Shown: in pieces, positions 23,521-40,361 of the stretch
How the letters are laid out: every line of letters starts with the position of its first letter
Position numbering within the stretch: the first letter of the stretch is position 1
Assembly (NCBI GenBank): GCA_965213675.1
Contig: OZ243916.1
Location: forward strand, 576,001 to 640,000
DNA length: 64,000 nt
From: an uncultured Candidatus Binatia bacterium
Lineage (GTDB): Bacteria > Desulfobacterota > Binatia > UBA9968 > JAJDTQ01
Reading direction: 5' to 3'
Translations under genes and position numbers: made by a program
Notes under the pieces: generated by a model
The model's database searches: none
The model's input: only the letters and a program-made list of their open reading frames with translations
Told to the model about the DNA's origin: nothing

Positions 23521-23570
23521 GCGGTGGGGATGCGGCGGCGCGGTGGCCACCGCGCCGACAAGTGGATATC

Positions 23571-23600
23571 AGTCTACCAGTGCGTCGCGGCAGCGTGCAA
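23571..23600 (-). promoter_or_regulatory. Promoter of tRNA-Lys
   Basis: Minus strand TTGCAC-N18-TAGACT with extended -10 TG. Confidence 0.55.
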
Positions 23601-23699
23601 GGCAGACGCCTGCGCCATCCTCGTCATGCGGCTCGCGTTCTGGTAGAGAGCCACGAAACCCGCCAGCTTCCAAGACACCGGTCGAGAGGAGATCCGTCA

Positions 23700-24788
23700 A
23701 TGCTTTTGATTGCCGATCCTGACGTACAACAAGTCCTTCGGGTGGAGGACATCATCGACGACATGGAGCGGGCCTTTGCCGAGGAAGCGCGCGGCATCGC
23801 CGTCAACAAGCCGCGTACGCGCTACAAGGTGCCGCCGGATCCGGACTCCGACGGCTACATGGCCAACATCATTCCCGGCGCGGTGCCGAGTTCCGGGGTG
23901 GCGGCGCTCCGCTATGATTCCATGGTGGTGCGGGAGCGGATGGTGGAGGGGCTCAAACGCATGGATTACCCGTATCCGGCGCGCCGGAGCTGGGGCTTCG
24001 TGCTGCTGTTCAACCTGGAGGACGCGGAGCCCCTGGCCATCATTCACGACTTCAGCCTGTCGGCGATACGGGTGGGCGCCACCACCGGGGTGGCCACGCG
24101 CGCGCTGTCGCGGGAGGACAGCCGGGTGGTGGGGCTCTTCGGCTCGGGCAACGAGGCGGTGCAGAACCTTGCGGCCATCTGCGCGGTGCGGGACGTGCGC
24201 GAGGTGCGCGTGTACAGTGTCACCAAAGAGCACCGGGAACGGTTCGCCATGGAGATGACCGGCCGGCTCGACATCCAGGTGCGGCCGGTGGACAACGCCC
24301 GGGCCGTGGTGGAAGGCGCGGACATCGTCATGTGCGCCACCAACGCCAGCACGCCGGTGTTCGACGGCGACTGGCTGGTACCCGGCCAGATGGTCACCAC
24401 CATCGTCAACACCGACGGGGTACACCGGCGCACCGAGGCGGACGCCGCCACGTTTACGCGCGCCGATCTCATCGTGCTCAACAACAAGGAAACGTCCCTG
24501 CACAATCAGCAGCGCGAGATGCTCGACCTCATCGACGAGGGCAGGATCGGGTGGGACAGGATCTGCGAGTTGGGTCAGGTTCTCATCGGCGACAACCCGG
24601 GCCGAAAGAGCGCGGACGACATCATCTACTACAAGAGCAACACCGGGGTCGGAATCCAGTTCGCCGCCGCCGGCGCGGTGATCTACGAGGAATGCAAGAA
24701 GCGGGGGCTCGGACGCGAGTTGCCCACCGAGTGGTTCGGCGCCGACCTGGGCGAGTGGCTGGACAAGGGGTACTCGCCGTCGCCGTAG
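23700..24788 (+). CDS. Ornithine cyclodeaminase/mu-crystallin family protein (paralog 2)
   Basis: AALRYDS, IRVGATT, FGSGNEA, ADIVMCATN, GVGIQFAA. Confidence 0.88.
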   Translation: MLLIADPDVQQVLRVEDIIDDMERAFAEEARGIAVNKPRTRYKVPPDPDSDGYMANIIPGAVPSSGVAALRYDSMVVRERMVEGLKRMDYPYPARRSWGFVLLFNLEDAEPLAIIHDFSLSAIRVGATTGVATRALSREDSRVVGLFGSGNEAVQNLAAICAVRDVREVRVYSVTKEHRERFAMEMTGRLDIQVRPVDNARAVVEGADIVMCATNASTPVFDGDWLVPGQMVTTIVNTDGVHRRTEADAATFTRADLIVLNNKETSLHNQQREMLDLIDEGRIGWDRICELGQVLIGDNPGRKSADDIIYYKSNTGVGIQFAAAGAVIYEECKKRGLGRELPTEWFGADLGEWLDKGYSPSP

Positions 24789-24895: not shown

Positions 24896-24913
24896 TAACA
24901 GACACCACACTAG
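24896..24913 (-). repeat. Isolated terminus of the dispersed element (CTAGTGTGGTGTCTGTTA) overlapping a TAG stop
   Basis: Reverse complement matches 13192-13210 (CTAGTGTGGTGTCTGGTTA) except for a 1-nt indel; its TAG is the stop codon of paralog 3. Confidence 0.6.
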
Positions 24914-26025
24914 AACAGGTCCGGAAACAGGTCCTCCGGTATCTCCCGTCCGAGTCCCTGGCTCACCGCCGCCTCGTACACCTTGCCCGCAAGGGCGGCG
25001 AACTGCAGACCGAAGCCGACGCTGTTGTTGAAGCAGGTGATCTGCTCGGAGTCGGTGCGGCCGGGGTGGCGGTTGAGCAGCAGGTCGGGCAGGTCGGGGG
25101 CGTGGGCCCAGTCGATGTCCACGGCTTCGCCGGGCGGGTAGCCCTTGTCGATATCCAGCAGGACCCGCGGGGGCAGAGGTCCCTTGTCGTTCCGGGCTAC
25201 GAAGACCATCGGCCCGAGGTTGTCCCGGGAGTTGACGGCGAGCACGTCGAAACGGTTGAAGGTCTCCGGCGCGATCTCGCAATGGCGCACCGAGCACACG
25301 TACATGCCGGGCTCCAGCCAGGCGCTTTGGATCACCGGCGTCAGGGCGTTGGTGGCGATGATGACGATGTCGCTGCCGCGCATGGCTTTTTCGGCGCTGT
25401 CCACGGCCGCCACATCCGGACGATTCTCCCACCGCGGATCCTCGACGAAACGCTTGCGGTGGTCCGCGTTGGGGCTGAAGACCCGGATGGATCGGATCCC
25501 GCCGGTGGCGTGCAGCATGGCTTCCACGTGCGCCCCGGCCATGAAACCGGTGCCGAGCACTCCCACGCTGGCGGCGTCGGGCCTGGCAAGATATGTGGCC
25601 GCAAGACCCGCGGCGGCGCCTACCCGGAGATTGCGAATGTGCCCCTCGCTGACCAGGGCGAGCAGGTCGCCGTTCTCCAGGCTGAACAGAAACAGCAAGC
25701 CCCGCGTGACGCTGTGGGACCGGCGCGTGCCCGGGGTCCGGTCCCGGCGAAAGCTGCCGGCGCGCTCCTGCCAGAAAAGCTTGTCGGTGAGGAACCGGAT
25801 GGCCGCGTACTTCCGCGTGGCGGCGGACATGGTCTTCAGGCTGTGGGCGCCGGGCAGCGTGTTGCCGTCCACGTCCACGTAGGAATCGGGCGTCAGCAGA
25901 TCGATCCGCGGGCTTGTGACGGCGGCGCCGGCGCCGAGATCCCGGTAGGCTTCCTCAAGGGCCGCCAGACTCGTGGGCATGTCCAGAAGCCGTTCGGCGT
26001 CGTTGTGGTCAATGGCGAGTATCAT
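24910..26025 (-). CDS. Ornithine cyclodeaminase/mu-crystallin family protein (paralog 3)
   Basis: AAIRF, LRVGAAAG, LGTGFMA, SDIVIIATN, GFGLQFAA. Confidence 0.88.
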   Translation of the reverse strand: MILAIDHNDAERLLDMPTSLAALEEAYRDLGAGAAVTSPRIDLLTPDSYVDVDGNTLPGAHSLKTMSAATRKYAAIRFLTDKLFWQERAGSFRRDRTPGTRRSHSVTRGLLFLFSLENGDLLALVSEGHIRNLRVGAAAGLAATYLARPDAASVGVLGTGFMAGAHVEAMLHATGGIRSIRVFSPNADHRKRFVEDPRWENRPDVAAVDSAEKAMRGSDIVIIATNALTPVIQSAWLEPGMYVCSVRHCEIAPETFNRFDVLAVNSRDNLGPMVFVARNDKGPLPPRVLLDIDKGYPPGEAVDIDWAHAPDLPDLLLNRHPGRTDSEQITCFNNSVGFGLQFAALAGKVYEAAVSQGLGREIPEDLFPDLF

Positions 26026-26321
26026 GTGCATTCCTCTGACAATGGAACGTTGGCGATTGGATTCAGGGGCGTTCCGCCGAGGCCGGGGGAGCGCCGATGA
26101 TTCCCGAAGGCTGGCGCGTTGTCAAGACGCCGGCGCCATGCCTCGGCGTCGATTGATGGATTGCCAAAAATGCAAACCCGTATAACGTTCCAGATATTTC
26201 TCGTAGTTGTGTCGTGCAACAAACTCTATGATTCCCGAGTGTGTTTATGTATACTCCCCGCGATTGGCCGAAGGGGCAGGGCCACAGGCACGTTGCGGAG
26301 ACCCACGACAGGAGGCGTAGA

Positions 26322-26888
26322 ATGGCACTCGATCCGGCAGCCACTGCCAGCACATTCGACCGTTACATCGAGGAGCTTCGCGCGCTGTGGAAGGACAGCA
26401 ACGACGTGAATCTTCCCTTCAAGGTGAAGGCCGCCATGGAGCGGATGCTCGCATCCACGAGTCCCGACGATCCGTGGATGGCGGAGATCATCGGGGACGC
26501 CAAGCCGTCGCGGGAACTCTACCGGGATCCGGAGTACGGATTCGTCCAGATGGGTCACGTCCATCCCCAAGGGCACGGCAATCTGCCCCATGACCACGGC
26601 CCTTGCTGGGTGGTCTACGGCGCCTATCAGGGACTGACGGAGATCAGCCTGTACGAGCGTGTCGACGACGGCAGGAACGCGGACAGGGCGGACCTGCGCA
26701 CCACTGAGGTCCACAAGCTGGGAGCCGGCGTCGTCTACCCCTATCTGACCGGACAGATCCATTCGACGCACGCAGCCGAGACGCCCGCGGTGGTCTTTCG
26801 CTTCCTGAGCGCGGATCTCACCCGGATCCTGCGCCGGCGCTATGACGTCGAGACAGGCGAGGTATCGCTCATCGAGCCGCAGCCGTAA
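26322..26888 (+). CDS. Cysteine-dioxygenase-like metal-dependent cupin protein
   Basis: PHDHGPCWVVYGAYQG-T...GQIHS motif; RBS AGGAGG. Confidence 0.65.
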   Translation: MALDPAATASTFDRYIEELRALWKDSNDVNLPFKVKAAMERMLASTSPDDPWMAEIIGDAKPSRELYRDPEYGFVQMGHVHPQGHGNLPHDHGPCWVVYGAYQGLTEISLYERVDDGRNADRADLRTTEVHKLGAGVVYPYLTGQIHSTHAAETPAVVFRFLSADLTRILRRRYDVETGEVSLIEPQP

Positions 26889-27440: not shown

Positions 27441-27579
27441 CTTGCGCCGCAGGAATTCACGGCTGCTTGTCCGTTCTCATCCGTCTTTTCGGCCGCTGGA
27501 TTTCGTCAAATTTGACCTGAAATTCTCCTCATTCCACTTGCCGAAGGGATGGCGATCGCGAATTTACGCTTTCGCGAAT
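27441..27579. repeat. Dispersed palindromic element, copy 2 (inverted relative to copy 1)
   Basis: 113/139 identity to reverse complement of 13211-13349; same GTCAAATTTGAC core. Confidence 0.8.
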
Positions 27580-27634
27580 GCCTGCGGCGCAGGCTCCTGG
27601 ACAACGACGTGTCCGGGAATCCCGTCGAAGGTTC

Positions 27635-28990
27635 ATGGAGTTCGAGGAAATCGTCGTGAACGAACCCTACCCCGGCGCTCCCGAGAGCCGGATGATCGAA
27701 ACCGCCGCGCCCGAAGTCATCCGGCAGCTCCAGGGTGAACGCCTCGCCGCCCTCGTGCAGCGCGCTTGGGACCGCATCCCGTTCTACCGCCACCGCTGGG
27801 AAGCCTGCGGCCTCCAACCCGGCGACATCCGCGCCGCCGGCGACATCCGCAAGCTCCCGGTCATTCGCAAGAGCGACTTCGAGGACAGCCTGCGGCTGCA
27901 CCCGCCCTTCGGCGACTACCAGGGCGACTTCGCCGCGGTACGGGTGCAGGCCAGCTCCGGCACGTCGGGCAACCCCAAGCCGTTCTTCTTCACGCGGAAC
28001 GACTGGGACATCATCGCCAGGCTGTGGAGCCGGCGCTTCCACGCCCAGGGTGTCAGGGAACGGGACATCCTCCAGATCGTGTTTGCCTACACGCTGTTCA
28101 TCGTGGGCTTCACCGCGTCAGAGGGCGCCATGCGCCTGGGCGCGCTGGTGGTGCCCACCGGCAGCGGCAGCGTCACTCCGAGCGAGCGGCAGGTGAAGAT
28201 CGCCCGGGACTGGGGCACCACGGTTCTGGCCGGAACCCCGTCCTATGTGCTCCACCTGGCCGACGTGGCCGAGGCGCAGGGTCTCGACTTGAGAAAGGAC
28301 TTCCGCCTGCGCCGCACCATCCACACGTCCGAGACCATGACCGAGGCGGCGCGCCGGGCCATCGAGAGCCGCTGGGGCGTGACCGCCTACGACAACTTCG
28401 GCAGCGTCGAGACCGGCTCTCCCACGTTCGAGTGCGAGGAACGCAACGGCTACCACGTGAACGAGGACGCCTACATCTTCGAGGTGCTGGATCCGCGTAC
28501 CCACGAGCCGGCCGCCGCGGGCGAGGAGGGCGTGCTCGTGGTCACCTGCCTGTTCAAGGAGGCGGCGCCCGTCATCCGCTACAACATCGAGGACCTGTGC
28601 GCGTTCATCGAGGGCGCGTGCGGCTGCGGGCGCACCTTCCGGCGCATCTCCCGGCTGCGCGGGCGCCTGAGCGACATGGTCAAGGTGAGCGGCATCCCGT
28701 TCTACCCGACGTCGGTGGAGAGCGCGTTGGAGCGGCTGCCGCAGCTCACCCGCGAGTATCGTGTCACGGTGGATCGGGTGGGGCAGCAGGACCGCCTGAC
28801 GGTGGAGGTGGAAATGCGCCCCGGCTGCGAATCCGGCGACGGCATCCGGCGGCAACTGGAGCGGGAACTCAAGGTGGCCACGAACCTCACCATGGAGGCG
28901 GTGCTGTTGTCGCCCGGCGCACTGGCGCGTTCCCTGGGAGTGGAGAACCGCATCAAGGTGCGGCGCATCCGGGACCGCCGGCCGTCGTGA
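27635..28990 (+). CDS. Phenylacetate--CoA ligase (PaaK)-like acyl/aryl-CoA ligase
   Basis: ASSGTSGNPK P-loop, GTPSY, DNFGSVE, EEGVLVVT, P-x-IRY, GRLSDMVKVSG. Confidence 0.88.
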   Translation: MEFEEIVVNEPYPGAPESRMIETAAPEVIRQLQGERLAALVQRAWDRIPFYRHRWEACGLQPGDIRAAGDIRKLPVIRKSDFEDSLRLHPPFGDYQGDFAAVRVQASSGTSGNPKPFFFTRNDWDIIARLWSRRFHAQGVRERDILQIVFAYTLFIVGFTASEGAMRLGALVVPTGSGSVTPSERQVKIARDWGTTVLAGTPSYVLHLADVAEAQGLDLRKDFRLRRTIHTSETMTEAARRAIESRWGVTAYDNFGSVETGSPTFECEERNGYHVNEDAYIFEVLDPRTHEPAAAGEEGVLVVTCLFKEAAPVIRYNIEDLCAFIEGACGCGRTFRRISRLRGRLSDMVKVSGIPFYPTSVESALERLPQLTREYRVTVDRVGQQDRLTVEVEMRPGCESGDGIRRQLERELKVATNLTMEAVLLSPGALARSLGVENRIKVRRIRDRRPS

Positions 28991-29046
28991 CGCCCGCCCC
29001 CGGGCGCCGGTTTGCGGTACCGGGGTTTTCCGGTACCCCTGACATC

Positions 29047-30174
29047 ATGGAAAGCATCGAAGACGCCGCCCGCGCCCTGGCCCTGGACCGCAAGTGGCTT
29101 CAGGAGTTCGACGTGGTCGATCCCTTGAACGACACGTCGCTGCGCGGCTTTCTCTCCCGGCGGCCGGATCATCGCTACGGGGCGCTGGCGCTCACCCACG
29201 TGAACGAGGCGCCGGCGCCGCAGATCGTGTTCGCCACGCCCAAGCTGCACTATCCCTTCGACCGGCAGGGCCGGTTCCATTTCCCGCCCCTTCGCGAGAT
29301 CGAGATCTTCGAGAAGTACGACGGCACCAACGTGCTCGCCTACGCCTACCACGCCGCGGGCGGGCGCCGGTTCCTGACCTACAAGCTGCGCCTGTCGCCG
29401 GTGCTGCGCAACGGCCGCTTCGGCGCGTTCCTGGACCTGTGGCGGGAGCTGCTGGGGCGCTACCCGGTCATTCCCGAGCTGGTGGACTTGAACGGCTGCG
29501 CCCTCGGGTTCGAACTTTACGGGCGCCGCAACGCCCATCTCATTCACTACGAGAATCCCCTGGACTGTGTGCTGCTCTACGGCGTCACCGGGGATGGAAA
29601 CCCGGTGTCGCCATCCGTGCTGGACGGCCGCGGGGTCCCGACGGCCACGCGTTACGGCGCCCTGGCCGCGGGCCGGGATCCGGTGGCGGAGTACGGCGCG
29701 ATTCGCGAGCGTATGGAACGGGACAACCGCCCGGCGGATGACGGCCGCATCGCGGGCGTGGAAGGCGCCGTGTGGTACGTGCACACCGGCGCCGGCGCCA
29801 CGGTGCTGTTCAAGTGCAAGCCCGAATCGGTGGAGCAGGTGCACTGGGTGGGCAGCATCCACAAGGCCGCGGTCACCGCCACCTGCTGGAACGTCTTCGA
29901 GAGCCAGGACGCGCTCACCTACGAGACCCTGTATCCGCTCCTGGCCGAAGAGTACGACGGCGACGAGATCGAACGCTTCAGGACCTGCATTGACGAATGC
30001 ATCGCCGCGGTGTGCGAGGAGATGGAGTTCAAGAACCGGGTGCTGGACGAATATCGCCGGGTGGGGGTCACCCTTGCCGAGGACAAGGGCGCGGTCATGC
30101 GCCGCCTTTCGGGCAAGTTCCGGAAGCAGGAGATGAAGAAGGTCTTTGCCCTCATCGCGCTCGATGAAGGGTAG
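29047..30174 (+). CDS. ATP-dependent polynucleotide ligase-like protein (T4 Rnl1/RnlA-type RNA ligase motifs), 375 aa
   Basis: C-terminal part of the 802-aa track ORF; TPKLHY, motif I EKYDGTN, III FELYGRRNAHLIHY, IV EGAV, V FKCK in canonical order; alternative GTG at 28987 overlaps the upstream stop. Confidence 0.72.
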   Translation: MESIEDAARALALDRKWLQEFDVVDPLNDTSLRGFLSRRPDHRYGALALTHVNEAPAPQIVFATPKLHYPFDRQGRFHFPPLREIEIFEKYDGTNVLAYAYHAAGGRRFLTYKLRLSPVLRNGRFGAFLDLWRELLGRYPVIPELVDLNGCALGFELYGRRNAHLIHYENPLDCVLLYGVTGDGNPVSPSVLDGRGVPTATRYGALAAGRDPVAEYGAIRERMERDNRPADDGRIAGVEGAVWYVHTGAGATVLFKCKPESVEQVHWVGSIHKAAVTATCWNVFESQDALTYETLYPLLAEEYDGDEIERFRTCIDECIAAVCEEMEFKNRVLDEYRRVGVTLAEDKGAVMRRLSGKFRKQEMKKVFALIALDEG

Positions 30175-30234
30175 CCCGCCCGGGGACACGGCGCGTCCTT
30201 GCAATCGCCCCATCGCCCCCTTACGTTGAACGCC

Positions 30235-31668
30235 ATGATCTTCGACGACAACCGCGGTTTTATCGATGCGTTGCGGCAGTCCGGCGACCTCGTGGAAGTG
30301 GCAAGGGAAGTGAGCTGGGACCTGGAACTCGGCGCCGTCAGCCGGCTGGCGTGCGAGAAGGACGGCCCCGCGGTGTGGTTCAAGCGTGTCACCGATTACG
30401 TGGAGGACGTGTCGGTGTTCGTCAATCCGGTGGCCACCTGGCGGCGCATCGCCATCGCCCTGGGGTTGCCGCCCACGGCCACGGTGCGGGAAATCTACGA
30501 AGCCTACGAGAAGGGGGAAGCCAACCCCGTCGAGCCGGTGGAAGTGACACGGGCGCCGTGCAAGCAGGTGATCCGACTGGGCGCCGCCGCCAACCTGTGG
30601 GACCTCCCCACGCCCATGCTCCACGAGGGCGACGGCGGCCGTTACCTGGGCACCTGGGACTTGGTCATCTCCAGGGACGCGGACAGTGGCTGGGTCAACT
30701 GGGGCATGTACCGGTTCATGGTCTACGACGCGCACCACCTCACCGGCTTCCCGCGCCCCACCAGCCACCTGGGCAAGGTATTCCTGGACCAGTACGCCGC
30801 CCGGGGGAAGCCCATGCCCCTGGCCATCGCCATCGGCGCCGACCCCTTGTCGCACTTCGCCGCGGCGGCCACCTACGCCCTGGGGGGCGACGAGGCGAGC
30901 CTGGCGGGCGGTTTGCGCGGGCGGCCCGTGGAGATGATCCGCTGCGAAACCAGCGACCTGCGGGTGCCGGCCCATTCCGAGATCGTCATCGAGGGTGAAG
31001 TGCTGCCCGATCGGGTGGGGCTGGAGGGACCCTACGGCGAGTACCCGGGCTACCGCACCGGCGAAATGGGCAACGGCATCCTGTTCCGCACCACCGCCAT
31101 CACCCACCGGGAGAAGCCCGTGCTCACGGTGGACGCCACCGGCTACAAGGACGACAGCTCCACGGTGACGGCGCTGTCCGGCGCGCTGGCCATCAAGCGC
31201 CGGCTGGAGCGCCACGGCGTGCCGGTGCGGGACGTGTACGTGCCGCCGGAGGGGGCCGTGCACCTGGCGGTGATGAGCGTGGAGTACGGCGGTCAAGAGG
31301 TGGCCCGCAAGGTGCTCCAGGTGCTGACTTCGCGCCGGGCGCTGCTCTCCAAGCTCTTCCTCGTGGACACCGATACCGACGTGTTCGACATGGGCAAGGT
31401 GCTGCACGCCTTCTCCACCAAGTGCCATCCGGCCAACGGCATCCACGTGATCCACTACGAGGGCCGGGCCAATACGCTCACGCCCTGTTACAGCCAGGCG
31501 GAGCGCGCCGCGCAGAAGGGCGCCACCGTGCTGTACGACTGCACCTGGCCGGGAGAGTGGTCGCGGGAGTGGGAGACGCCGGTGAAGGCGACGCTGGATT
31601 CGATCTTCTCGGAAGAGGTGCGGGAGAAGGTGCTGAAGAACTGGAGCGACTATGGCTTCAAGCAGTGA
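30235..31668 (+). CDS. UbiD-family (de)carboxylase, phenylphosphate carboxylase alpha/AbcA-like
   Basis: HEGDGGRYLGTW, VNWGMYR, EIVIEG, EGPYGEYPGY, HAFSTKCHPANGIH, DCTWP, KV-x-x-NWSDYGF C-terminus as recalled for PpcA. Confidence 0.88.
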   Translation: MIFDDNRGFIDALRQSGDLVEVAREVSWDLELGAVSRLACEKDGPAVWFKRVTDYVEDVSVFVNPVATWRRIAIALGLPPTATVREIYEAYEKGEANPVEPVEVTRAPCKQVIRLGAAANLWDLPTPMLHEGDGGRYLGTWDLVISRDADSGWVNWGMYRFMVYDAHHLTGFPRPTSHLGKVFLDQYAARGKPMPLAIAIGADPLSHFAAAATYALGGDEASLAGGLRGRPVEMIRCETSDLRVPAHSEIVIEGEVLPDRVGLEGPYGEYPGYRTGEMGNGILFRTTAITHREKPVLTVDATGYKDDSSTVTALSGALAIKRRLERHGVPVRDVYVPPEGAVHLAVMSVEYGGQEVARKVLQVLTSRRALLSKLFLVDTDTDVFDMGKVLHAFSTKCHPANGIHVIHYEGRANTLTPCYSQAERAAQKGATVLYDCTWPGEWSREWETPVKATLDSIFSEEVREKVLKNWSDYGFKQ

Positions 31669-31972
31669 GACGCCGGTCTGGGACACCTTCGTGCGCCGGC
31701 CGGGGGATGTGCGGTGCGGCGTGGAGACGCCGCTGGTGTTGCGGGACCTCAAGCCGGGCCGCGGCAAGTACGGCCTCCGGCACGTCGTCGGCGTGATTCA
31801 TGAGGATGGCGGTTCGGGCGAGCGCCTCGTCGTGCGCACCGTGGTGGGCGTGGCGCTGCCCGGTTCCTATTCCGTGGAAATCGTCCGGGACTTGCCGCAA
31901 GAGATCACGGGCACTCCGTACCGCGACTTCTATGCCGCGCTCCGGCAGGCCGCGGCAAAGAGCCAGGCGTGA
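31652..31972 (+). CDS. Phenylphosphate carboxylase gamma-subunit-like small protein
   Basis: W-x-x-FV-x-x-P...G-x-E-x-x-L-x-x-R-x-L-x-PG-x-x-KY pattern as recalled for the Ppc gamma family; overlaps the UbiD gene end. Confidence 0.65.
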   Translation: MASSSETPVWDTFVRRPGDVRCGVETPLVLRDLKPGRGKYGLRHVVGVIHEDGGSGERLVVRTVVGVALPGSYSVEIVRDLPQEITGTPYRDFYAALRQAAAKSQA

Positions 31973-32106
31973 TCCATGGAGTTGCGCGACGCACGGATGC
32001 GGCCTTGAGTCCAACCGTGGGTTTCCGTTCCTCGCGTGTCTGTGGCTGGCAGCGGCAACGGAGTCATGATCTTGGGCAGTTCCGGCCACACGCGAGGGGC
32101 GGTCAC

Positions 32107-34020
32107 ATGATGGCGACAGGGGCGTTCCTGTTGGGCGCGCGGTGTGGCGGCATACGGCCGTGGACCGCGTGGGCGCTCGCGGGGCTGATCATCGCGGCCT
32201 GCGGTTCCCATCCCCGGCTCGCCGCCGCCCTGCCGCTGCCCGCCAACGACAAGGGCGTCACCGGGCACTTTGACACCACCGTTTCCATGGGCGCGGCCAT
32301 GCGCGTTTCCCAACGCGAGGATCTTCTGTTCAGCCGCGCGAGCGGCGGCAAGGCTTACACCTTCAACTCGGACGACGGCAACCTCAACTTCGACCGCGGC
32401 GACCTCGTTTCCCTCAACGCCAAGATCAATCACGAGTTGCAGCTTCACCTGGAAAGACCGGGCGCGGAGTGGAGCCTGTTCGGGCGGGCGCTGTACTACT
32501 ACGACCACGTGGCCGCGGACGGCGACACCGAGCGCACGGCCTTGTCCGCCGCCGCCAAGAGTCACGCCGGACGCGACTTCCAACTGCTGGACGCCTATGT
32601 CGCGGGCGACTTCGACGCCGTCCCGCTCTCCATTCGATTGGGCAACCAGGTCCTGAACTGGGGCGAAAGCGTCTTTCTCCGCGGCGGCATCAACTCCATC
32701 AACCCGGCCGACATCGCCAGGCTCCGGGTGGCCGGCTCGGAGTTGCGGGACGTGCTCGTTCCGGTGCCCGCGGCCAACGTCAAGCTGGGCATTGGCGACA
32801 GCTTCTCCCTGGAAGGCTTCTATCAGCTCCGTTGGGACCACTCGGAGATCGAAGCCCAGGGCACGTTTTTCTCCACCACGGACGTCGCCGGTCCCGGAGC
32901 GAATACCATTCACCTGGGACTCGGCCGTGCGGGAAGAGGGGACGATGTCGCCAACACGCCCGACCCCGCCTGCCCCAGCCGAACCAATCCGGCGGGACTG
33001 TGCTCCCGCGTGCCGCGCGCGGCCGACCGCGAGGCCGGCCATCAGGGACAGTTCGGCGTGGCCCTGCGCTACTTCGCGGAGGCGCTGAACGATACGGAGA
33101 TCGGACTCTACTACGCGCGCATCCACAGCCGCCTGCCGCTGGTGTCTCTTTATGCGGGCGATCCAACCATGCGGACGGCGCCGGGGGGCTTTGTCGGCTC
33201 CATACGCTATTTCGTGGAGTATCCGGAAGACATCGACCTCATGGGCGCGAGCTTCAACGGAGAAGTGGGCGCCAGCGGCTTCGCCATACAGGGCGAGGTG
33301 GCCTGGCGCCGGAACCAGCCGCTTCAGGTGGACAATGCGGAACTGATTTACTCCGCCATGAGCCCGTTGCGGCGCCTCGCCGCCCAGGCGGCCAGGGCGC
33401 AAGGCCCGGCGCGACAACTGCTGGCGGGTCTTGCGCGCGCCGGGCAGTTGTTCAGCGGTAGCCAGACCGGCGCCGCGGAATCGGGCCATGAGGTTTCGGG
33501 CTTCCGCCGCAAGGACGTGGTGCAGGGATCGCTTGCGGTGTCCAAGGTCTGGGGCTCCCTGTTGGGCGCGAGCGAGTGGAGGGCGCTGGCCGAGGCGGGC
33601 TTCACGCACATCCGGGACATGGAGGACCCATCGGAGCTCCGTTACGATGGGCCGGGCACGTGGACCAGCGGCAATCCGGTCTTCACCGCCGCCGGCGTGC
33701 AACCGCAGACCCAGGTGAAGGGCTTTGCCGACGCGTTTTCGTGGGGCTACCGGGCGGTGGTTCGGGGTCTTTACCACAACGCCATTGGACCCGTGAACCT
33801 GGCGCCGCAGGTGGCCGTGGCCCACGATGTCGACGGCACCACGCCAGCGCCCATTGGCAACTTCGTGGAAGGACGCAAGACCGTGACATTGTCGGCGGAG
33901 GCCAGCTATCTCTTGTCGTGGCGCGCGCAACTCGCGTACACGCATTTCTTCGGGGCCGGACAACACAATCTGCTGGCTGACCGCGACTTCGTGTCATTGA
34001 CGGTGAGCTACTCGTTTTGA
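32107..34020 (+). CDS. DUF1302 family outer-membrane protein
   Basis: NSDDGNLNFD, LLDAYV, RLGNQVLNWGES, EYPEDI, ADRDFVSLTVSYSF with C-terminal Phe. Confidence 0.88.
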   Translation: MMATGAFLLGARCGGIRPWTAWALAGLIIAACGSHPRLAAALPLPANDKGVTGHFDTTVSMGAAMRVSQREDLLFSRASGGKAYTFNSDDGNLNFDRGDLVSLNAKINHELQLHLERPGAEWSLFGRALYYYDHVAADGDTERTALSAAAKSHAGRDFQLLDAYVAGDFDAVPLSIRLGNQVLNWGESVFLRGGINSINPADIARLRVAGSELRDVLVPVPAANVKLGIGDSFSLEGFYQLRWDHSEIEAQGTFFSTTDVAGPGANTIHLGLGRAGRGDDVANTPDPACPSRTNPAGLCSRVPRAADREAGHQGQFGVALRYFAEALNDTEIGLYYARIHSRLPLVSLYAGDPTMRTAPGGFVGSIRYFVEYPEDIDLMGASFNGEVGASGFAIQGEVAWRRNQPLQVDNAELIYSAMSPLRRLAAQAARAQGPARQLLAGLARAGQLFSGSQTGAAESGHEVSGFRRKDVVQGSLAVSKVWGSLLGASEWRALAEAGFTHIRDMEDPSELRYDGPGTWTSGNPVFTAAGVQPQTQVKGFADAFSWGYRAVVRGLYHNAIGPVNLAPQVAVAHDVDGTTPAPIGNFVEGRKTVTLSAEASYLLSWRAQLAYTHFFGAGQHNLLADRDFVSLTVSYSF

Positions 34021-34045
34021 CCGGCCTGGACGCGGAAGACTTGAC

Positions 34046-35407
34046 ATGAACGCGCAACGGATCATGGCAGCGGCAGTGTGCGTATGGGGCCTCTCGGCGG
34101 CGCCGTTGGAGGCGAAGGTCACGGGCGAGGAAGCCGCCCGGCTGGGAGCGGCGCTCACGCCCTTGGGGGCCGAAAAGGCGGGCAACGACACCGGCGCCAT
34201 TCCCGCATGGGAGGGCGGCATCACCGAACCGCCGCCCGGCTACCAGCCGGGAATGCGTCTCGTCGATCCCTTCCCCGATGACAAGCCGCTTTTCACCATC
34301 ACCGCGGACAATTTCAAAGAGTACGAGGCGAATCTCACGCCCGGTCAGATCGCGGTGATACAACGTTATCCCGACACCTACCGGATGCCGGTGTACCAGA
34401 CGCGGCGAACCGCGTCGCTCCCGCCGCGCATCTACGAGCGGACCATCGCCAACGCCATGACGGCCACGCTCACCGCCGGCGGCAACGGCGTGACGAACGC
34501 CGCCGAGGGGATCCCGTTTCCGATTCCACGGAACGGGCTCGAGGCCATCTGGAACCACATGCTGCGTTACCGCGGCAAGTCCGTGCGCTTCACCAGAGGG
34601 CAGGCCGCGCCCACGGCCGACGGCGCCTACGTGATGGTGCAGATGCGCGAGCAGGTTTTGTGGGGTTATCAGCAGCCTGGGGCGACCACGGAGAACATCG
34701 ACAACAAGCTCGCCTACTTCCTGCAGGAGGTGCTGTCCCCGGCGCGGTTGGCGGGCGCACTGATTCTGGTCCACGAGACCCTGAATCAGGCGGCGGAGCC
34801 GCGCAAGGCATGGGTCTACAATCCCGGCCAGCGGCGTGTGCGGCGCGCGGCCAACATCGGCTATGACAATCCCGGAACCGGCTCCGACGGCCAGCGCACC
34901 AACGATCAGGCCGACATGTACAACGGCGCGCCGGACCGCTACGACTGGACTCTGGTGGGCAAACGGGAGATCTACATTCCGTACAACAGCTACAGGCTCG
35001 CCAGCGACCGTCACGGCTTCGACGAGATCCTCAAGCCGGGCCACATGAACCCGGACCTGACCCGATACGAACTCCACCGGGTTTGGGTCGTGGAGGCGCG
35101 GTTGAAGCCGGGCGCCCGGCACATTTTCCCCCGGCGCACGTTCTATCTCGACGAGGACAGTTGGCAAGCGGCGGTGGTGGATCAGTACGATGACCGCGGT
35201 CAAATGTGGCGGGTGAGCCAAGCCTACATCGTCAACCACTACCAGGTGCCTCTGGTGTGGAGCACCGGCATGTCGATTTACGACCTCCAGAACGGGCGCT
35301 ATCTCGTTCGGGGACTGACCAACGAGTTCGAACCGGCGGAGTTCGACGTGGAGATGAGCCCAAGCCAGTTCACCCCCCGGGCATTGCGGCGCCGCGGCCG
35401 GCGTTGA
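34046..35407 (+). CDS. DUF1329 family periplasmic protein
   Basis: Signal peptide; LTPLGAEKAGN, GIPFPIP, AWVYNPGQRRVRRA, RYELHRVWVVEA, FYLDEDSW. Confidence 0.9.
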   Translation: MNAQRIMAAAVCVWGLSAAPLEAKVTGEEAARLGAALTPLGAEKAGNDTGAIPAWEGGITEPPPGYQPGMRLVDPFPDDKPLFTITADNFKEYEANLTPGQIAVIQRYPDTYRMPVYQTRRTASLPPRIYERTIANAMTATLTAGGNGVTNAAEGIPFPIPRNGLEAIWNHMLRYRGKSVRFTRGQAAPTADGAYVMVQMREQVLWGYQQPGATTENIDNKLAYFLQEVLSPARLAGALILVHETLNQAAEPRKAWVYNPGQRRVRRAANIGYDNPGTGSDGQRTNDQADMYNGAPDRYDWTLVGKREIYIPYNSYRLASDRHGFDEILKPGHMNPDLTRYELHRVWVVEARLKPGARHIFPRRTFYLDEDSWQAAVVDQYDDRGQMWRVSQAYIVNHYQVPLVWSTGMSIYDLQNGRYLVRGLTNEFEPAEFDVEMSPSQFTPRALRRRGRR

Positions 35408-35626
35408 CGAAACCGCGGGTTTCGCGCACCCATTCAACGGCAACCCGGGATTCTGTGCGGTGGATCGAATCGTGGCGAGAGGCGGAGAAGGGTCGGTTTC
35501 GGGCGGCTTCAGGAAGAAACCGGGTCGTCTTGGAATTATTTGAGGGAAATCCAGCGGGAAGCCGATTTCCCTGCCTCGCGGTAGATTCTGGATGAACCCG
35601 ACAGGCTCCTGGGCAGGAGGTTCACG

Positions 35627-36706
35627 ATGGCGGACGACGACGTACGGGTCCTGACCAACGACGACATGGAGGGTCTCCTCGACATGGAGGAGATCGTGGA
35701 CGCGGTGGAAACGGCTTACGTGGAACTGGGCCGGAAGATCGCGGAAGGGATGCCCCGGCGCCGGCTGCACATGCCGCTGGAGGGGCAGGAGCGCACCTGG
35801 TACTGGCTGAACGTGATTCCCGGCGCGGTGCCGGCGTTCGATACCGCCGCGGTGCGGCTGGATTCCTCGCAGATCCGCTTCCGCAACGTCGGCGGCGGCA
35901 GCCGCATGGAGTTCCCGGGCGACTTCTCGGGCTTCGTGCTGCTCTTCAGCATCAAGGAACGCGCCCTCAAGGGGATTGTCCACGACCACTATCTGTCGGC
36001 GCTGCGCGTGGGCGCCACCAGCGGGGTGGCGGCAAAGTACCTGGCGCGGCCCGACGCGTCCGTCCTGGGCATTTTCGGCAGCGGCACCCAGGCCCACGGC
36101 CAGGTGGACGCCCTGTGCGCGGTGCGGGACATCCGCGAGGTCAAGGTGTTCTCGCTGCGGGAGGAAAACCGCAAGCGCTTCGCCCGGGAAGTGTCCGAGC
36201 GCTATGGCGTGAAGGCGCGGGCGGTGCGGCATCCGGAGGATGTGGTGCACGACTCGGACATTGTCGTCACCGCCACCAACTCCGGCGATCCCGTGTTCGA
36301 GGGCGACCTGCTGGAGCCGGGCACCCATCTCGTGTCCATGATCGGCCCGGACTGGTTCGACAAGCGGCGGGAACTGGACGACGCCGCCATCGAGAACTGC
36401 GATCTCATCGTGGTGAACTCCAAGGAACAGGTGGAGATCGACGAACAGCCGGAGTTGATGTCGCCGATACGCAAGGGCATCATCGGCTGGGAGCAGATCC
36501 ACGAGTTGGGGGACTTGGTCATCGGAAGCATCGCCGGCCGCACCACCGCCTCGGAGATCACGCATCACAACAACAACTGCGGCATGGGCGTCCAGTTCGC
36601 CGCCATTGGCCACTTGGTGCTGGAGCAAGCCAGGAAGCGCGACCTCGGCACCCGGCTGCCGGCGGATTTGTTCATGACCCGGCGCAGTGACGTGTCCTCT
36701 CCCTGA
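35627..36706 (+). CDS. Ornithine cyclodeaminase/mu-crystallin family protein (paralog 4)
   Basis: AAVRLDS, LRVGATS, FGSGTQA, SDIVVTATN, GMGVQFAA. Confidence 0.88.
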   Translation: MADDDVRVLTNDDMEGLLDMEEIVDAVETAYVELGRKIAEGMPRRRLHMPLEGQERTWYWLNVIPGAVPAFDTAAVRLDSSQIRFRNVGGGSRMEFPGDFSGFVLLFSIKERALKGIVHDHYLSALRVGATSGVAAKYLARPDASVLGIFGSGTQAHGQVDALCAVRDIREVKVFSLREENRKRFAREVSERYGVKARAVRHPEDVVHDSDIVVTATNSGDPVFEGDLLEPGTHLVSMIGPDWFDKRRELDDAAIENCDLIVVNSKEQVEIDEQPELMSPIRKGIIGWEQIHELGDLVIGSIAGRTTASEITHHNNNCGMGVQFAAIGHLVLEQARKRDLGTRLPADLFMTRRSDVSSP

Positions 36707-36798
36707 ACGCGGCGGTGATTCGACCGGCTCGAAATAGGATCCGACGCCAGGTCCGTTCGGGACGGCGCTGGCAACGAAACCTTCCCGGAGAACTTCCC

Positions 36799-37431
36799 AT
36801 GGCAACAACTCTCAGCATCGACCCGCAACACCTCAAGGGACGGCATGTCGACCGCGCCGTGGAGGCGCTCAAGCGCGACGGCGTGATCGTGTATCCGACG
36901 GACACCATTTATGGTCTGGGCTGTGACGTCACCAGCAAGGCCGCGGTGGAGCGCATCCGCCGCATCAAGGGCCGCGACGCCGACAAGCCCATGTCTTTCG
37001 TGTGCTCCGACCTCATGCAGGTGAGCCGCTACGGCCACGTGTCCAACTTCGTCCATCGCATCCTGAAGCGCTTTCTCCCCGGGCCGTACACCTTCGTGCT
37101 GACCGCCACCAAGGAAACGCCCAGGGTGCTCCAGTCCAAGCAGAAGACCGTGGGCATCCGCATTCCCGACCACCCCGTGCCGCTGGCGCTGGTGGAGCGG
37201 CTGGGCAACCCCGTGGTCAGCACCAGCGCCAACGAGAGCAACGAGGAGGTGGTGACCAACCCCGCCGACCTCGAGAACATCTTCGGGCGCCGCGTGGATC
37301 TCATCATGGAGTGCGGCACGCTTCCGGTGCTGGCCTCCAGCGTCATCTCGCTGGTGGATGACCGCATCGCCATCCTGCGCGAAGGGCAAGGGGATCTCAC
37401 ATACTTCAAGAGCGAGATGGCCGCCGGGTGA
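36799..37431 (+). CDS. Sua5/YciO/YrdC family (L-threonylcarbamoyladenylate synthase-like)
   Basis: YPTDTIYGLGC, IKGR, PGPYTFVL, VGIRIPD, STSAN. Confidence 0.88.
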   Translation: MATTLSIDPQHLKGRHVDRAVEALKRDGVIVYPTDTIYGLGCDVTSKAAVERIRRIKGRDADKPMSFVCSDLMQVSRYGHVSNFVHRILKRFLPGPYTFVLTATKETPRVLQSKQKTVGIRIPDHPVPLALVERLGNPVVSTSANESNEEVVTNPADLENIFGRRVDLIMECGTLPVLASSVISLVDDRIAILREGQGDLTYFKSEMAAG

Positions 37432-37548: not shown

Positions 37549-37743
37549 CGGGGCGGGGCGGCTAGTGAGGACGGGGAATCGGATTCTTCACCGGACCTGA
37601 CACGTTCTTCCGTTTCATTGACACGCAAAAGGGGCCTGTGATAGGCATGCGCCCCTGTATCCCGCGCTTCCGGCGCCAGCTTGGAACAGGCCAGCGGGCG
37701 GCGGCAGCAGACTGAGGCAATGCAATCGCCAAGGAGGTTTCTC

Positions 37744-38730
37744 ATGTTGCGTAGACTCGTCGGATGGGTCCTGCTGTGCGCGGTCTTGTGGCTGGCCGCA
37801 CCCGCAGGTGTGGCGTTGGCCGCGGACAAGTACCCGAGCAGGACCATTACCTGGCTGATCCCCTACGGTCCCGCCGGAGGATTCGATCTTCACAGCCGAG
37901 CCATGATCATCGGCATGAAGAAGTCCCTCGGGGTCAACGTCATCATCCGCAACCGGCCGGGGGCGGGCGGCACCATCGCGTGGAACCTCACCTGGGCGGC
38001 CAAGCCCGACGGTTACACCATCTCCACCGTGAACATCCCGGGAGCCATCGTGGCCGAGTTGTTCAACGATCCGAAGCCCAAGTACCGGCTGAAGGATTTC
38101 TCCTGGATCGGACAGATCTCCTCGGGTCCGTATGTGTGGGCGGTGGGCGCCGACACTCCGTTCAAGACGCTGCAGGACATGCAGAATGCCGACAAGGTTC
38201 TGCTCACGGGTACGGGGGTAGGCGGCACGGCTTGGGTCACGGCGGCCCTGACGGCGTCGGTCTTGAAGTTCAAGCATCAGTTCATCCTGGGTTATCCCAG
38301 TGCGCCGGCCGCCAACATGGGCATCGTGCGCGGCGAGGGGCATGCGCGGGGCGTGGGCCTGGATTCACCGGGACAGATGCAGTTCGTTCGCGACGGCCAC
38401 CTGCGGCCCATGTGGGTCTATCTGGATGAGCGTTCTCCGGAGTTCCCCGACGTTCCCACCATCGGAGAGTTGGGCCATCCGGAGTTGACGGTGCTGGCTT
38501 CCCACCGGGTGGTGACGGCTCCGCCGGGCGTGCCCAAGGAGCGGATGGCCATCCTTCAGAAGGCGTTCGACGCGGCGGCCAAGGACCCCGACGTGCTGGA
38601 GCGGTTTGCCAAGATGAAGGCCAAAATCGAGCCCGTGGTGGGTCAGGAGTGGACGGACATGCTCAATGGCTTCTACGGTCTCATCGAGGACAACGGCGAG
38701 GTCTTCAAGAAGTCGCTGTCCGGGAAATAG
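37744..38730 (+). CDS. Tripartite tricarboxylate transporter substrate-binding protein (Bug/TctC)
   Basis: Signal peptide; YPSRTI...PYGPAGGFD, NRPGAGG, KPDGYT, PDVPTIGELG. Confidence 0.9.
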   Translation: MLRRLVGWVLLCAVLWLAAPAGVALAADKYPSRTITWLIPYGPAGGFDLHSRAMIIGMKKSLGVNVIIRNRPGAGGTIAWNLTWAAKPDGYTISTVNIPGAIVAELFNDPKPKYRLKDFSWIGQISSGPYVWAVGADTPFKTLQDMQNADKVLLTGTGVGGTAWVTAALTASVLKFKHQFILGYPSAPAANMGIVRGEGHARGVGLDSPGQMQFVRDGHLRPMWVYLDERSPEFPDVPTIGELGHPELTVLASHRVVTAPPGVPKERMAILQKAFDAAAKDPDVLERFAKMKAKIEPVVGQEWTDMLNGFYGLIEDNGEVFKKSLSGK

Positions 38731-39115: not shown

Positions 39116-39895
39116 TCACGCGCTGGCGGCGGACGCGCCGCCATCCACTACCAGGGTGGTGCCGGTGACGAATGACGATTCGTCCGAGGCCAGGAACAGG
39201 ATGGTGCTGGCCACCTCCCGCGGCTCGGCCCACCGCTTCATCAACGTGTGCCGGGCGCCGGTGCGGCGCAATTCCTCCTCGCTCACCCCACGCGCTTGGG
39301 CGCGCGCGATGTGGAAGGGCGTGATGGTGGGGCCGGGACACACGGTGTTCACGCGAGTGCCGTGCTCCACCTCCTCGATGGCCAAGGTCCGGCTCAGGCT
39401 CACCACTGCGGCCTTGGTCACATCGTATTGCCCCATTCCCGCCCGTCCGGTCACTCCGAAGACCGAGGAAACGTTGACGATGCTGCCGCCGCCCCGGCGG
39501 CGCAGCAGGGGCACGGCGGCCTTGCAGCAATGAACCGTGGCCATTAGATTGACGGCCAGGATCGACTCCCAACTATCGCGCCCGGCGTCGGCCAGGGCGC
39601 CGAATACGCGGATGCCGGCGACGTTGACCAGAATGTCGAGTCCACCGAAACGCGCGTCCGCGGCCGCCAGGGTCCGGCGCGCCTCGTCCTCGTCACTCAA
39701 GTCCGCCGCCAGGGGTAGCACGTCCGCTTCAGGGACCCGCTGGCGGACGGCCGCGGCCGCGCTTCCGGCGGCGTCGCCGTCGCGGTCGACGATGGCCAGC
39801 CGGCCGCCTTCCTCGGCGAACAGCATGGCGGTAGCGGCGCCGATGCCGCCCCCGCCGCCGGTGATGAACGCGACCTTGTCCTGAATGCGGCCCAT
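39116..39895 (-). CDS. SDR family NAD(P)-dependent oxidoreductase
   Basis: TGGGGGIG, NVAG, NVSS, YDVTK, VNTVCPG, VDGG; true start MGRIQDK. Confidence 0.92.
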   Translation of the reverse strand: MGRIQDKVAFITGGGGGIGAATAMLFAEEGGRLAIVDRDGDAAGSAAAAVRQRVPEADVLPLAADLSDEDEARRTLAAADARFGGLDILVNVAGIRVFGALADAGRDSWESILAVNLMATVHCCKAAVPLLRRRGGGSIVNVSSVFGVTGRAGMGQYDVTKAAVVSLSRTLAIEEVEHGTRVNTVCPGPTITPFHIARAQARGVSEEELRRTGARHTLMKRWAEPREVASTILFLASDESSFVTGTTLVVDGGASAASA

Positions 39896-39902
39896 GGGCT
39901 GC

Positions 39903-40361
39903 CTACCGTGAATGGCCGAGGGCCGAGCGCATGGCCACGTCGGCGGCCGGGACCGAGAAGCCTTCCGCCTCCAGCGCCGCCGCGGCCACTTCCTCGTCTT
40001 CGTGCGGCGCGGCGCCGCTGACGCCGATGCCGCCCACCACCGCGTCGCCCAGCCAGATGGGCAAGCCCCCTTGACCGATGGCCATGCGCCCGTCGTGGAC
40101 GATCTGGACGCCGGCATAGAACACCGGCTTGGGGTTGGCTTTCTCCTCCAGACCTCCGGTGCTCTGCCGGAAGGCCGCGGCCGCGAAGGCCTTGCCCCGG
40201 GCAATGTCCGGCGCCACGAACTTGGTCCCGTCCATGCGCCCGGCCCACATGAAGTTGCCGCTGGCATCCACCACCGTTACGGTGACCAGATAACCCTTGT
40301 CCTCCGCCGCGCGGATGCCCGCATCCACCAGGGCACGCGCCTGTTTCATTCCGAAGCTCAA
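39903..40361 (-). CDS. GlcG/HbpS family heme-binding protein
   Basis: VVDASG..RMDG, IARGKAFAA, GGLPI, GGIGVSGA...DEEVA. Confidence 0.88.
   Translation of the reverse strand: MSFGMKQARALVDAGIRAAEDKGYLVTVTVVDASGNFMWAGRMDGTKFVAPDIARGKAFAAAAFRQSTGGLEEKANPKPVFYAGVQIVHDGRMAIGQGGLPIWLGDAVVGGIGVSGAAPHEDEEVAAAALEAEGFSVPAADVAMRSALGHSR

Follow-up and report, generated by a model that had tools for sequence, protein, structure and literature searches.

Within a window of 64,000 nucleotides (nt) from an uncultured Candidatus Binatia bacterium (C1:576001-640000 of a 4.5-Mb assembly; completeness 97.7%, contamination 8%), six co-directional genes follow one another on the forward strand. Here we report that, judged by its distribution in relatives, the conserved unit at this locus comprises only three of the six: an aryl-CoA ligase of the PaaK type, a UbiD-family enzyme of the alpha type and a small gamma-type subunit. 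The trio probably adds CO2 to, or removes CO2 from, an aromatic compound. On comparative grounds we regard it as fairly likely to be a minimal variant of the arene-carboxylase-plus-CoA-ligase kind of system, in which carboxylation would be followed by CoA ligation; the direction of the reaction (carboxylation first), the use of prenylated flavin mononucleotide (prFMN) and the class of substrate are what we infer. An earlier reading of the same DNA, made from the sequence alone, had combined all six genes into one module; its core trio is upheld, and the roles it gave to an embedded ligase-fold protein and to a DUF1302/DUF1329 pair are not supported.

The six genes, with lengths in amino acids (aa), are the following.

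27635..28990 (alternative upstream ATG 27578), +: PaaK-type adenylate-forming aryl-CoA ligase; core; Pfam AMP-binding and AMP-binding_C_2
29047..30174 (alternative GTG 28987), +: RNA-ligase-fold covalent nucleotidyltransferase, 375 aa; probable lineage-specific passenger; motif I KxDGxN and fold
30235..31668 (frame from 30199), +: UbiD-family prFMN (de)carboxylase, alpha-type, 477 aa; core; UbiD_N, UbiD and UbiD_C
31652..31972, +: gamma-type small subunit, 106 aa, remote Phenyl_P_gamma member (PpcC/AbcD type) by profile methods; core
32107..34020 (open frame from 31969), +: DUF1302 outer-membrane-type protein; variable accessory; Pfam E 1e-159
34046..35407, +: DUF1329 (LolA-like) lipoprotein-type protein, partner of DUF1302; variable accessory; Pfam E 4.5e-154

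All six open reading frames (ORFs), which span 27578-35407, are borne out as a co-directional series, and intergenic gaps within the first four genes (ligase to gamma) measure at most 60 nt. The stretch has a guanine-plus-cytosine (G+C) content of 66% in a window of 63-69%, and its codon bias is gene-like, with G+C at third codon positions (GC3) of 0.80-0.91 in five of the six ORFs, the long frame with the second gene not being scored separately. The coordinates confirm the 17-nt overlap between UbiD and the small ORF (gamma start 31652, UbiD stop 31668). A second overlap had been suspected at a GTGA tetranucleotide; the tetranucleotide is indeed present at 28987-28990, but a gene overlap there is unlikely. 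Homologues of the RNA-ligase-fold gene are 374-384 aa long, which makes ATG 29047 (375 aa) the likelier start and leaves a 56-nt gap. By the same reasoning, UbiD orthologues of 476-477 aa mark ATG 30235 (477 aa) as the most likely UbiD start. Consensus promoter and terminator sites were no commoner than in shuffled sequence, and the scan is hence uninformative on co-transcription. A search for RNA runs that cover 27500-35500 listed none.

The UbiD enzyme and its small subunit

All three UbiD domains of the 477-aa protein score far above their Pfam cut-offs (198.9, 76.9 and 56.3 bits against 23.3, 24.3 and 24.2; Pfam UbiD E 6.9e-59). The best of seven NCBIfam UbiD models is TIGR02723, that of the phenylphosphate carboxylase subunit PpcA (374 bits), followed by BagN (279), VdcC (236), PpcB (186), the menaquinone type (184) and the E. 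coli-type UbiD (147). The protein had been called PpcA-like rather than a housekeeping UbiD, and both the distance between 374 bits and the 147 and 184 bits of the two housekeeping types and the tree described below agree with this. There are 31 UbiD-family matches in the genome, only one of them within the window, and this one is the most PpcA-like of all, the next best reaching 208.5 bits on TIGR02723. Among chains in the Protein Data Bank (PDB), phmmer places HudA/PA0254 closest (E 8.1e-70, 239 bits), together with Fdc1, and the solved phthaloyl-CoA decarboxylase (Pcd) is very distant (49.6 bits, E 2.6e-12).

The active site is intact. The metal/phosphate ligands N168, H191 and E233 of Fdc1 have their counterparts in N155, H178 and E220. 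The Glu-Arg-Glu (ERE) triad R160/E264/E269 aligns with R173/E277/E282, the catalytic residues of Fdc1 (PMC8379154). Both sets of residues are invariant across 31 UbiD orthologues.

To find reference proteins for a phylogeny, the PpcA model was run over 201 genomes that belong to another class. Two were obtained, a PpcA equivalog with 710 bits and, in a naphthalene-carboxylase-like cluster, a protein with 464 bits, and a gamma gene accompanies each. The first locus (L211; G150:C82:3000-17516) holds, besides the PpcA equivalog and its gamma, UbiX and a second, generic UbiD, and no PpcB equivalog; the generic UbiD scores 114.9 bits on TIGR02724, so that no PpcB reference was obtained. In the second (L212; G122:C211:3000-18756), the alpha protein and gamma are joined by three further UbiDs and an ATPase of the MRP type. 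In the four genomes reached through loci a PpcA equivalog was not found. A quick IQ-TREE search under LG+G4 on 68 UbiDs placed the window clade (31 rows) as sister to the PpcA equivalog plus the naphthalene-carboxylase-alpha-like protein; the window clade and the joint clade each received full support (100) in the Shimodaira-Hasegawa-like approximate likelihood ratio test (SH-aLRT), and the genome's 28 other paralogues fall outside the joint clade. On model scores, residues and tree, the window UbiD is thus classed as an alpha-type enzyme, sister to the PpcA/naphthalene-carboxylase-alpha-like group.

The remaining parts of a phenylphosphate carboxylase system are missing from the vicinity. The sequence-only reading had noticed a single UbiD and neither ubiX, phosphatase subunit nor phenylphosphate synthase gene (pps) in the window, and family searches of the whole genome bear this out. 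The only UbiX (C1:1315283-1315828, 235 bits against a cut-off of 108.9) lies outside the cluster, some 0.7 Mb away; the only PpcD-like match (C1:3474454) stays below the TIGR02726 cut-off, at 158.9 against 281.95 bits; and a second (beta) UbiD is found neither in the window nor in the conserved genus block. No PPDK_N gene, and hence no candidate phenylphosphate synthase, lies near the cluster, the search having used no model specific to that synthase; the genome's only PPDK_N gene is at C1:2832194-2833225.

The 106-aa protein encoded just downstream of UbiD had been proposed as a gamma-family member, and this stands by profile methods only, the direct run of the Phenyl_P_gamma hidden Markov model (HMM) on 31652-31972 that had been suggested having returned no match. 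NCBIfam models and phmmer against PDB chains likewise found nothing for this protein. A profile built from 29 gamma orthologues, however, retrieved 49 relatives among 1.8 billion representatives, and PF09662 (Phenyl_P_gamma) matches 38 of the 46 relatives from profile searching, with a best E of 1.5e-23; the nearest relative (P0180, 56% identity) reaches 29 bits against a cut-off of 25. Aligned with hhalign to other gammas, including those beside the PpcA equivalog, the family scores 99.7% with an E of 9.6e-26, in a comparison set partly found with the query profile itself. On this profile evidence the protein is a remote Phenyl_P_gamma relative of the PpcC/AbcD type. A search of 24,648 ORFs showed the gene to be unique in the genome.

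Structure prediction adds a likely role as a binding partner. A structural model of gamma (predicted local distance difference test, pLDDT, 89.7) has five strands and one helix, and the single cysteine of the protein is not conserved. The predicted UbiD-gamma complex scores 0.86, a mark that 58 of 80 solved complexes and 2 of 110 mismatched pairs also reach; the best control scored 0.00, the runs share at least 90% of contacts, and the partner has a pLDDT of at least 83. No gamma-like fold was found in solved structures (best Foldseek E 0.52; best VIA-align Z 2.5 over 48,161 chains), and the score is therefore unlikely to be the recall of a solved complex. In the model, invariant gamma residues G36-Y40, R62-G66 and Q83-F93 face the UbiD segments 163-168 and 256-285 around R160, E264 and E269, and gamma is thus predicted to bind UbiD next to the active site. 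There is a parallel in VdcCD, where the small subunit VdcD binds its UbiD-type partner near the catalytic ERE motif (PMC8379154). The predicted gamma interface would be analogous to this and not homologous, VdcD being a zinc ribbon with two CXXC motifs, unlike gamma.

The UbiD complement of this genome is an observation in its own right. The 31 matches in 4.5 Mb (for example C1:221186-222757, 483350-485074, 986894-988432, 1105383-1106861 and 2854000-2855436) are accompanied by one UbiX; two pairs with identical or nearly identical scores are possible assembly duplicates. Two further metagenome-assembled genomes (MAGs) reached through loci, G045 and G047, contain 36 and 44 UbiD matches. The expansion of prFMN enzymes in these genomes is striking.

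Linkage of the ligase to the UbiD-gamma pair

The ligase that opens the series matches Pfam AMP-binding_C_2 (PF14535, 3.5e-15) and AMP-binding (3.4e-09), and its best solved relative is the phenylacetate-CoA ligase 4r1l (E 2.4e-79). Since it remains below both PaaK equivalog cut-offs (TIGR02155, 289.6 against 646.3 bits; NF041878, 305.6 against 700), we assign it, from these scores, to the wider PaaK-like group and not to PaaK itself.

The three core genes travel together. Within the genus, a ligase orthologue lies directly upstream of UbiD, or of a gene inserted before it, in 21 of 23 loci and about 9 kb upstream in the other two, and gamma adjoins UbiD in 27 of 28 genomes, the sole miss occurring in a genome that is 76% complete. 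A metagenome survey extended the comparison to 80 loci whose UbiD is 57-94% identical to that of the window. Wherever at least 330 nt of downstream DNA were present (76 loci), gamma was found 3' of UbiD in 70, either adjacent (51), fused in one frame (4) or behind one redoxin-like spacer gene of about 1 kb (15); the six loci without gamma all belong to the spacer-gene clade and have downstream DNA that is too short. One database orthologue of 580 aa likewise unites UbiD domains with PF09662.

The ligase changes identity across the survey while its association persists. Of 56 metagenome loci, 19 have a PaaK-type ligase on the upstream side, and in each of these the UbiD identity is at least 69.9%. 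The 34 non-PaaK loci with room for it have a class-I AMP-binding ligase starting at the gamma stop in 32 cases, as opposed to none of 15 PaaK loci; one of the two loci that lack it (L193) has a PaaK-like gene downstream. That two unrelated ligase families hold the same place beside the same enzyme argues strongly for a joint function of ligase, alpha and gamma. The coupling of a carboxylase to a CoA ligase, as first suggested from the sequence, is in this way strongly backed by locus counts, and the core gene order, whose loss in relatives had been named as refuting the proposal, is kept. Ligase pairing as a general habit of the genome's UbiD paralogues was considered and rejected, a ligase lying within 4 kb of only 3 of the 30 other UbiD matches.

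Records of the trio come from soil, groundwater and host-associated uncultured bacteria, with names that include Binatia, Methylomirabilia, Zixibacteria and Acidoferrales. A literature search, which did not reach supplementary gene tables, found no publication that joins UbiD with Binatia or Binatota. As a separate observation, the clade with the spacer gene (L146-L170, 66-68% UbiD identity) carries a redoxin/AhpC-like gene between UbiD and gamma and a PNPOx-like gene upstream, and a PNPOx-family gene is also part of the N47 naphthalene carboxylase cluster (PMC6849830).

The proposed reaction and its alternatives

The preference for carboxylation first derives from two known systems that the arrangement parallels. 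The first is the putative benzene carboxylase AbcA/AbcD with the ligase BzlA from Peptococcaceae enrichments, which shares with our locus a PpcA-like UbiD, a ppcC-type small subunit (AbcD being scored as such) and an adjacent aryl-CoA ligase, in the same order of ligase, UbiD and small subunit and with neither kinase nor phosphatase subunit; its contig gene numbering runs ubiX, bzlA, abcA, abcD (PMC5852087). The locus described here differs from it in its PaaK-type ligase, the class-I type occurring only in sister clades and after gamma, in the position of ubiX, which is not adjacent, and in its host, a Binatia MAG that has genes of the oxygenase type in the neighbourhood. AbcAD is itself a putative enzyme, still to be proven biochemically, and the likeness to it lies in gene content and order. 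The second system is the naphthalene carboxylase of N47 and NaphS2, an alpha (PpcA-like) plus gamma pair whose product passes, in functional terms, to a PaaK-type aryl-CoA ligase (PMC6849830; PMC12016498). The alpha protein of the L212 cluster, which is of this type, is about 40% identical to the window UbiD and falls in the sister clade. Naphthalene carboxylase differs in forming a complex of about 750 kDa to which additional UbiD subunits and proteins of the MRP/ParA type belong, whereas the window family conserves only alpha and gamma. The CoA ligases for 2-naphthoate and 2-phenanthroate are PaaK-like, and the carboxylation of naphthalene, a slightly endergonic step, may proceed in coupling with the ligase (PMC12016498).

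A third relative, PpcABCD of Thauera and Aromatoleum with its synthase, shares the gamma family and supplies TIGR02723, the best curated model for the UbiD, yet here there is no adjacent beta subunit, no delta phosphatase equivalog and no dedicated synthase, the PPDK_N gene being far away, and the UbiD stays below the equivalog cut-off.

The following scheme would accommodate these features. UbiD would receive prFMN from the single, distant UbiX of the genome, and gamma would dock beside the loop that bears the catalytic Glu-Arg-Glu residues. The alpha-gamma enzyme would then carboxylate an aromatic or heteroaromatic substrate reversibly, and the ligase would convert the acid, at the expense of ATP, to its CoA thioester and so pull a slightly unfavourable carboxylation forward, a coupling that has been proposed for AbcAD/BzlA and for naphthalene carboxylase with 2-naphthoate-CoA ligase. 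Neither a kinase nor a second UbiD subunit nor a phosphatase subunit would be involved.

Several points weigh against this scheme. UbiD enzymes generally favour decarboxylation. The window UbiD misses the PpcA equivalog cut-off by a wide margin (374 against 564.6 bits) and shares only about 42% identity with the 710-bit PpcA equivalog, and the direct scan with PF09662 found no match in the 106-aa protein (E up to 10) or in the genome (E up to 1). The phylogeny that had been called for does recover the PpcA-type grouping, in a tree that has no rows for AbcA, PpcB, IPCD, Fdc1, E. coli UbiD or Pcd, so that kinship to PpcB, AbcA, Fdc1, E. coli UbiD and Pcd rests on HMM and phmmer scores; its orthologue rows were called gamma-linked from the metagenome survey as a whole and not individually. 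Oxygenase-type genes nearby (a Rieske/LigXa_C gene and a possible cupin dioxygenase) fit poorly with the strictly anaerobic setting of known arene carboxylases. Lastly, a PaaK-like ligase, IPCL, acts before its UbiD decarboxylase and not after it (PMC9516798).

This last case is the model for the reverse order of events, in which the PaaK-type ligase would make the CoA ester of an aromatic dicarboxylate or carboxylated aromatic and UbiD-gamma would then decarboxylate the ester, as with IPCL/IPCD and phthaloyl-CoA decarboxylase. The PaaK-like IPCL is clustered with its UbiD-type decarboxylase (PMC9516798), the locus counts speak for coupling of ligase and UbiD and not for the order of their reactions, and the oxygenase-type neighbours would suit such a pathway. 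We nevertheless think the reverse order rather unlikely. The window UbiD is far from the solved phthaloyl-CoA decarboxylase (49.6 bits, compared with 239 for HudA) and groups with PpcA-type enzymes in both models and tree, and gamma-type subunits are described with the proposed carboxylating enzymes Ppc, AbcAD and naphthalene carboxylase (PMC5852087, PMC6849830, PMC12016498). The IPCL/IPCD and Pcd systems themselves put ligation first and decarboxylation of a CoA ester second, and no gamma subunit is reported for them in the available text.

In a further alternative, UbiD-gamma would simply remove CO2 from a free (hetero)aromatic acid for catabolism or detoxification, after the manner of its best solved relatives HudA/PA0254 (E 8.1e-70) and Fdc1, with the ligase serving a neighbouring step on another compound. 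Genes of the ornithine cyclodeaminase (OCD) family, enzymes of cyclic imino acids, surround the trio and stand beside three other UbiD paralogues, which would agree with such a role. The proposal leaves unexplained why two unrelated ligase families should occupy complementary clades (32 of 34 against 0 of 15 loci) and why a gamma gene should accompany only 1 of 31 UbiD matches, and we hold it to be improbable. Carboxylation followed by ligation thus remains our favoured reading, to which the OCD-family genes recurring around the trio add a weak hint of N-heterocyclic acids as substrate.

Neighbouring genes and the place of the family

Two junctions of the locus are permissive, and the three genes outside the core are read, from comparison within the genus, as insertions at them. 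The first junction, between PaaK and UbiD (28990/30235), is filled in the genus by nothing, by the RNA-ligase-fold gene or, in two genomes, by about 9 kb of other genes; the second, after gamma (31972/35627), holds DUF1302/DUF1329, an opposite-strand Opp/Dpp-type ATP-binding cassette (ABC) transporter or less than 1 kb of DNA (L011, L018, L019 and L021 exemplify the variation). The adjacent DUF1302 and DUF1329 genes are clear members of their families (533.5 and 513.6 bits, both above Pfam cut-offs; the latter also LolA_like, 2.5e-10), and they had been taken for a fixed uptake component. They follow gamma in only 8 of 23 genus loci, and in two other genomes that were scanned (loci L011 and L018) the slot is taken by the ABC transporter genes, a family-5 binding protein and two permeases; as a fixed component the pair is thus not supported, and on this comparison it is classed as a variable accessory.

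The second gene of the series is the more unusual. Its product has no Pfam or NCBIfam match and no phmmer match among PDB chains, but the nucleotidyltransferase ligase fold assigned to it from the sequence proves well founded. K90, D92, G93, T94 and N95 are invariant in 49 homologues and constitute motif I (KxDGxN) of covalent nucleotidyltransferases. An AlphaFold2 model (pLDDT 90.0) finds archaeal Rnl3 as its best Foldseek match (5d1o; E 5.3e-10, template modelling (TM) score 0.50), then T4 Rnl1 and fungal Trl1, with E from 5e-10 to 1e-8; of 41 matches with E of 0.001 or less, RNA ligases hold all listed ranks 1-40 and DNA ligases follow. Fold and C-terminal domain thus resemble ATP-dependent RNA ligases, from which the protein differs in its identity of only 12-16%, its TM of about 0.5 and its lack of a Pfam match; some homologues approach or pass the cut-off of 27 for PF09414 RNA_ligase (P0059, 57% identity, 27.6 bits; P0079, 26.8; P0035, 22).

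Its distribution is patchy. Among the 28 genus genomes, 27 carry gamma and 21 the RNA-ligase-fold gene; in the 27 with gamma the gene sits in the slot in 16, elsewhere in 4 and is absent from 7, which keep PaaK, UbiD and gamma. In a species-wide collection of 80 loci, PaaK and UbiD neighbour the gene in 12, none of them below 78% identity. No UbiD or PaaK lies nearby in the 68 others, which stand at 45-63% identity and by their record titles come from at least 10 phyla; 43 of these offer at least 1.5 kb on both sides, so that the survey for ligase-like homologues beside UbiD/PaaK genes goes against the proposal that had prompted it. The possibility of a conserved partner elsewhere was also examined and rejected; outside the genus no neighbour is conserved, the largest neighbour cluster comprising 5 of 65 loci.

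The sequence-only reading had proposed that all six genes form one module, in which the ligase-fold protein would adenylate the substrate in place of phenylphosphate synthase and DUF1302/DUF1329 would import it. The genes are co-directional, with gaps of at most 60 nt within the first four, 16 genomes of the genus share the arrangement PaaK, ligase-fold gene, UbiD, gamma, and the protein retains its adenylyl-lysine motif. We find the six-gene module highly improbable and, by distribution, largely refuted: 7 genus genomes without the ligase-fold gene keep PaaK, UbiD and gamma, and 4 have it elsewhere (off-slot in 11 of 27 gamma-bearing genomes in all); at 45-63% identity it occurs in at least 10 phyla, 68 of 80 loci having no UbiD or PaaK nearby; two genomes have about 9 kb of other genes at the PaaK/UbiD junction; the protein resembles RNA ligases in fold and C-terminal domain; and DUF1302/DUF1329 are found in 8 of 23 loci only. 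Given its patchy presence in the genus and the lack of UbiD or PaaK near it elsewhere, we read the RNA-ligase-fold gene as a passenger at a permissive junction, and the idea of a protein repurposed as a substrate activator has been removed as unsupported.

The family to which this passenger belongs deserves mention for its own sake. It is a stand-alone family (29047-30174 in the window; loci L047-L113) most of whose members have no Pfam match, and its conservation at 45-63% identity across at least 10 phyla suggests an important, undescribed role in RNA (or DNA) end-joining or repair.

On either side of the six genes lie further neighbours.

26241..26888, +: conserved upstream neighbour, 215 aa, no Pfam/NCBIfam match; syntenic in 17 of 23 genus loci
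23562-24788 (+), 24910-26031 (-) and 35627-36706 (+): three ornithine-cyclodeaminase/mu-crystallin paralogues within 13 kb (Pfam); the third with OCD_Mu_crystall 8.9e-49 and in 17 of 23 genus loci
36715-37431, +: YrdC/TsaC-family gene; Sua5_yciO_yrdC 3.9e-57, TIGR00057 205 bits against 123.2; in 14 of 23 genus loci (within fetched stretches)
40965-42269 (-), 39116-40267 (-) and 37681-38730 (+): Rieske/LigXa-type oxygenase, SDR and TctC-family binding proteins; flank the block and recur in relatives

The 215-aa upstream protein is possibly a cysteine-dioxygenase-like cupin, its protein-language-model features scoring 0.96 to clusters auto-named 'cysteine dioxygenase family', which serves as a lead only. 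None of the three OCD paralogues reaches an NCBIfam cut-off; relatives have a fourth OCD-family gene just upstream of PaaK, and OCD-family genes also stand beside three other UbiD paralogues of the genome. The YrdC/TsaC gene begins 8 nt after the OCD gene, a position kept across the genus. The Rieske/LigXa, SDR and TctC genes suggest, by their family assignments, an aerobic metabolism of aromatic or methoxy-aromatic compounds in the vicinity.

Few enzymes of aromatic metabolism are as poorly understood as the proposed benzene and naphthalene carboxylases. Both are described from enrichment cultures, the carboxylation of naphthalene by extracts of N47 is highly sensitive to oxygen, and naphthalene carboxylase is a multi-subunit complex of about 750 kDa (PMC5852087, PMC12016498); for their small gamma subunit we found no assigned role. 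The family described here is large and well conserved, and it reduces the system to alpha, gamma and ligase, with natural alpha-gamma fusions and the recruitment of two ligase families. More tentatively, and with some doubt, the trio may stand for an uncharacterised family, widespread and sister to the anaerobic arene carboxylases: a minimal two-subunit prFMN carboxylase for a non-phosphorylated aromatic or N-heteroaromatic ring, with ATP spent by the ligase as the sole energy input, in hosts that also have oxygenases. The OCD-family neighbours would then point to a pyrrole-, pyridine- or imino-acid-derived substrate. The trio offers a simple, expressible model for the function of gamma, for carboxylation without prior phosphorylation and for the identity of the product, which the acid specificity of the ligase should reveal, as it did for 2-phenanthroate (PMC12016498).

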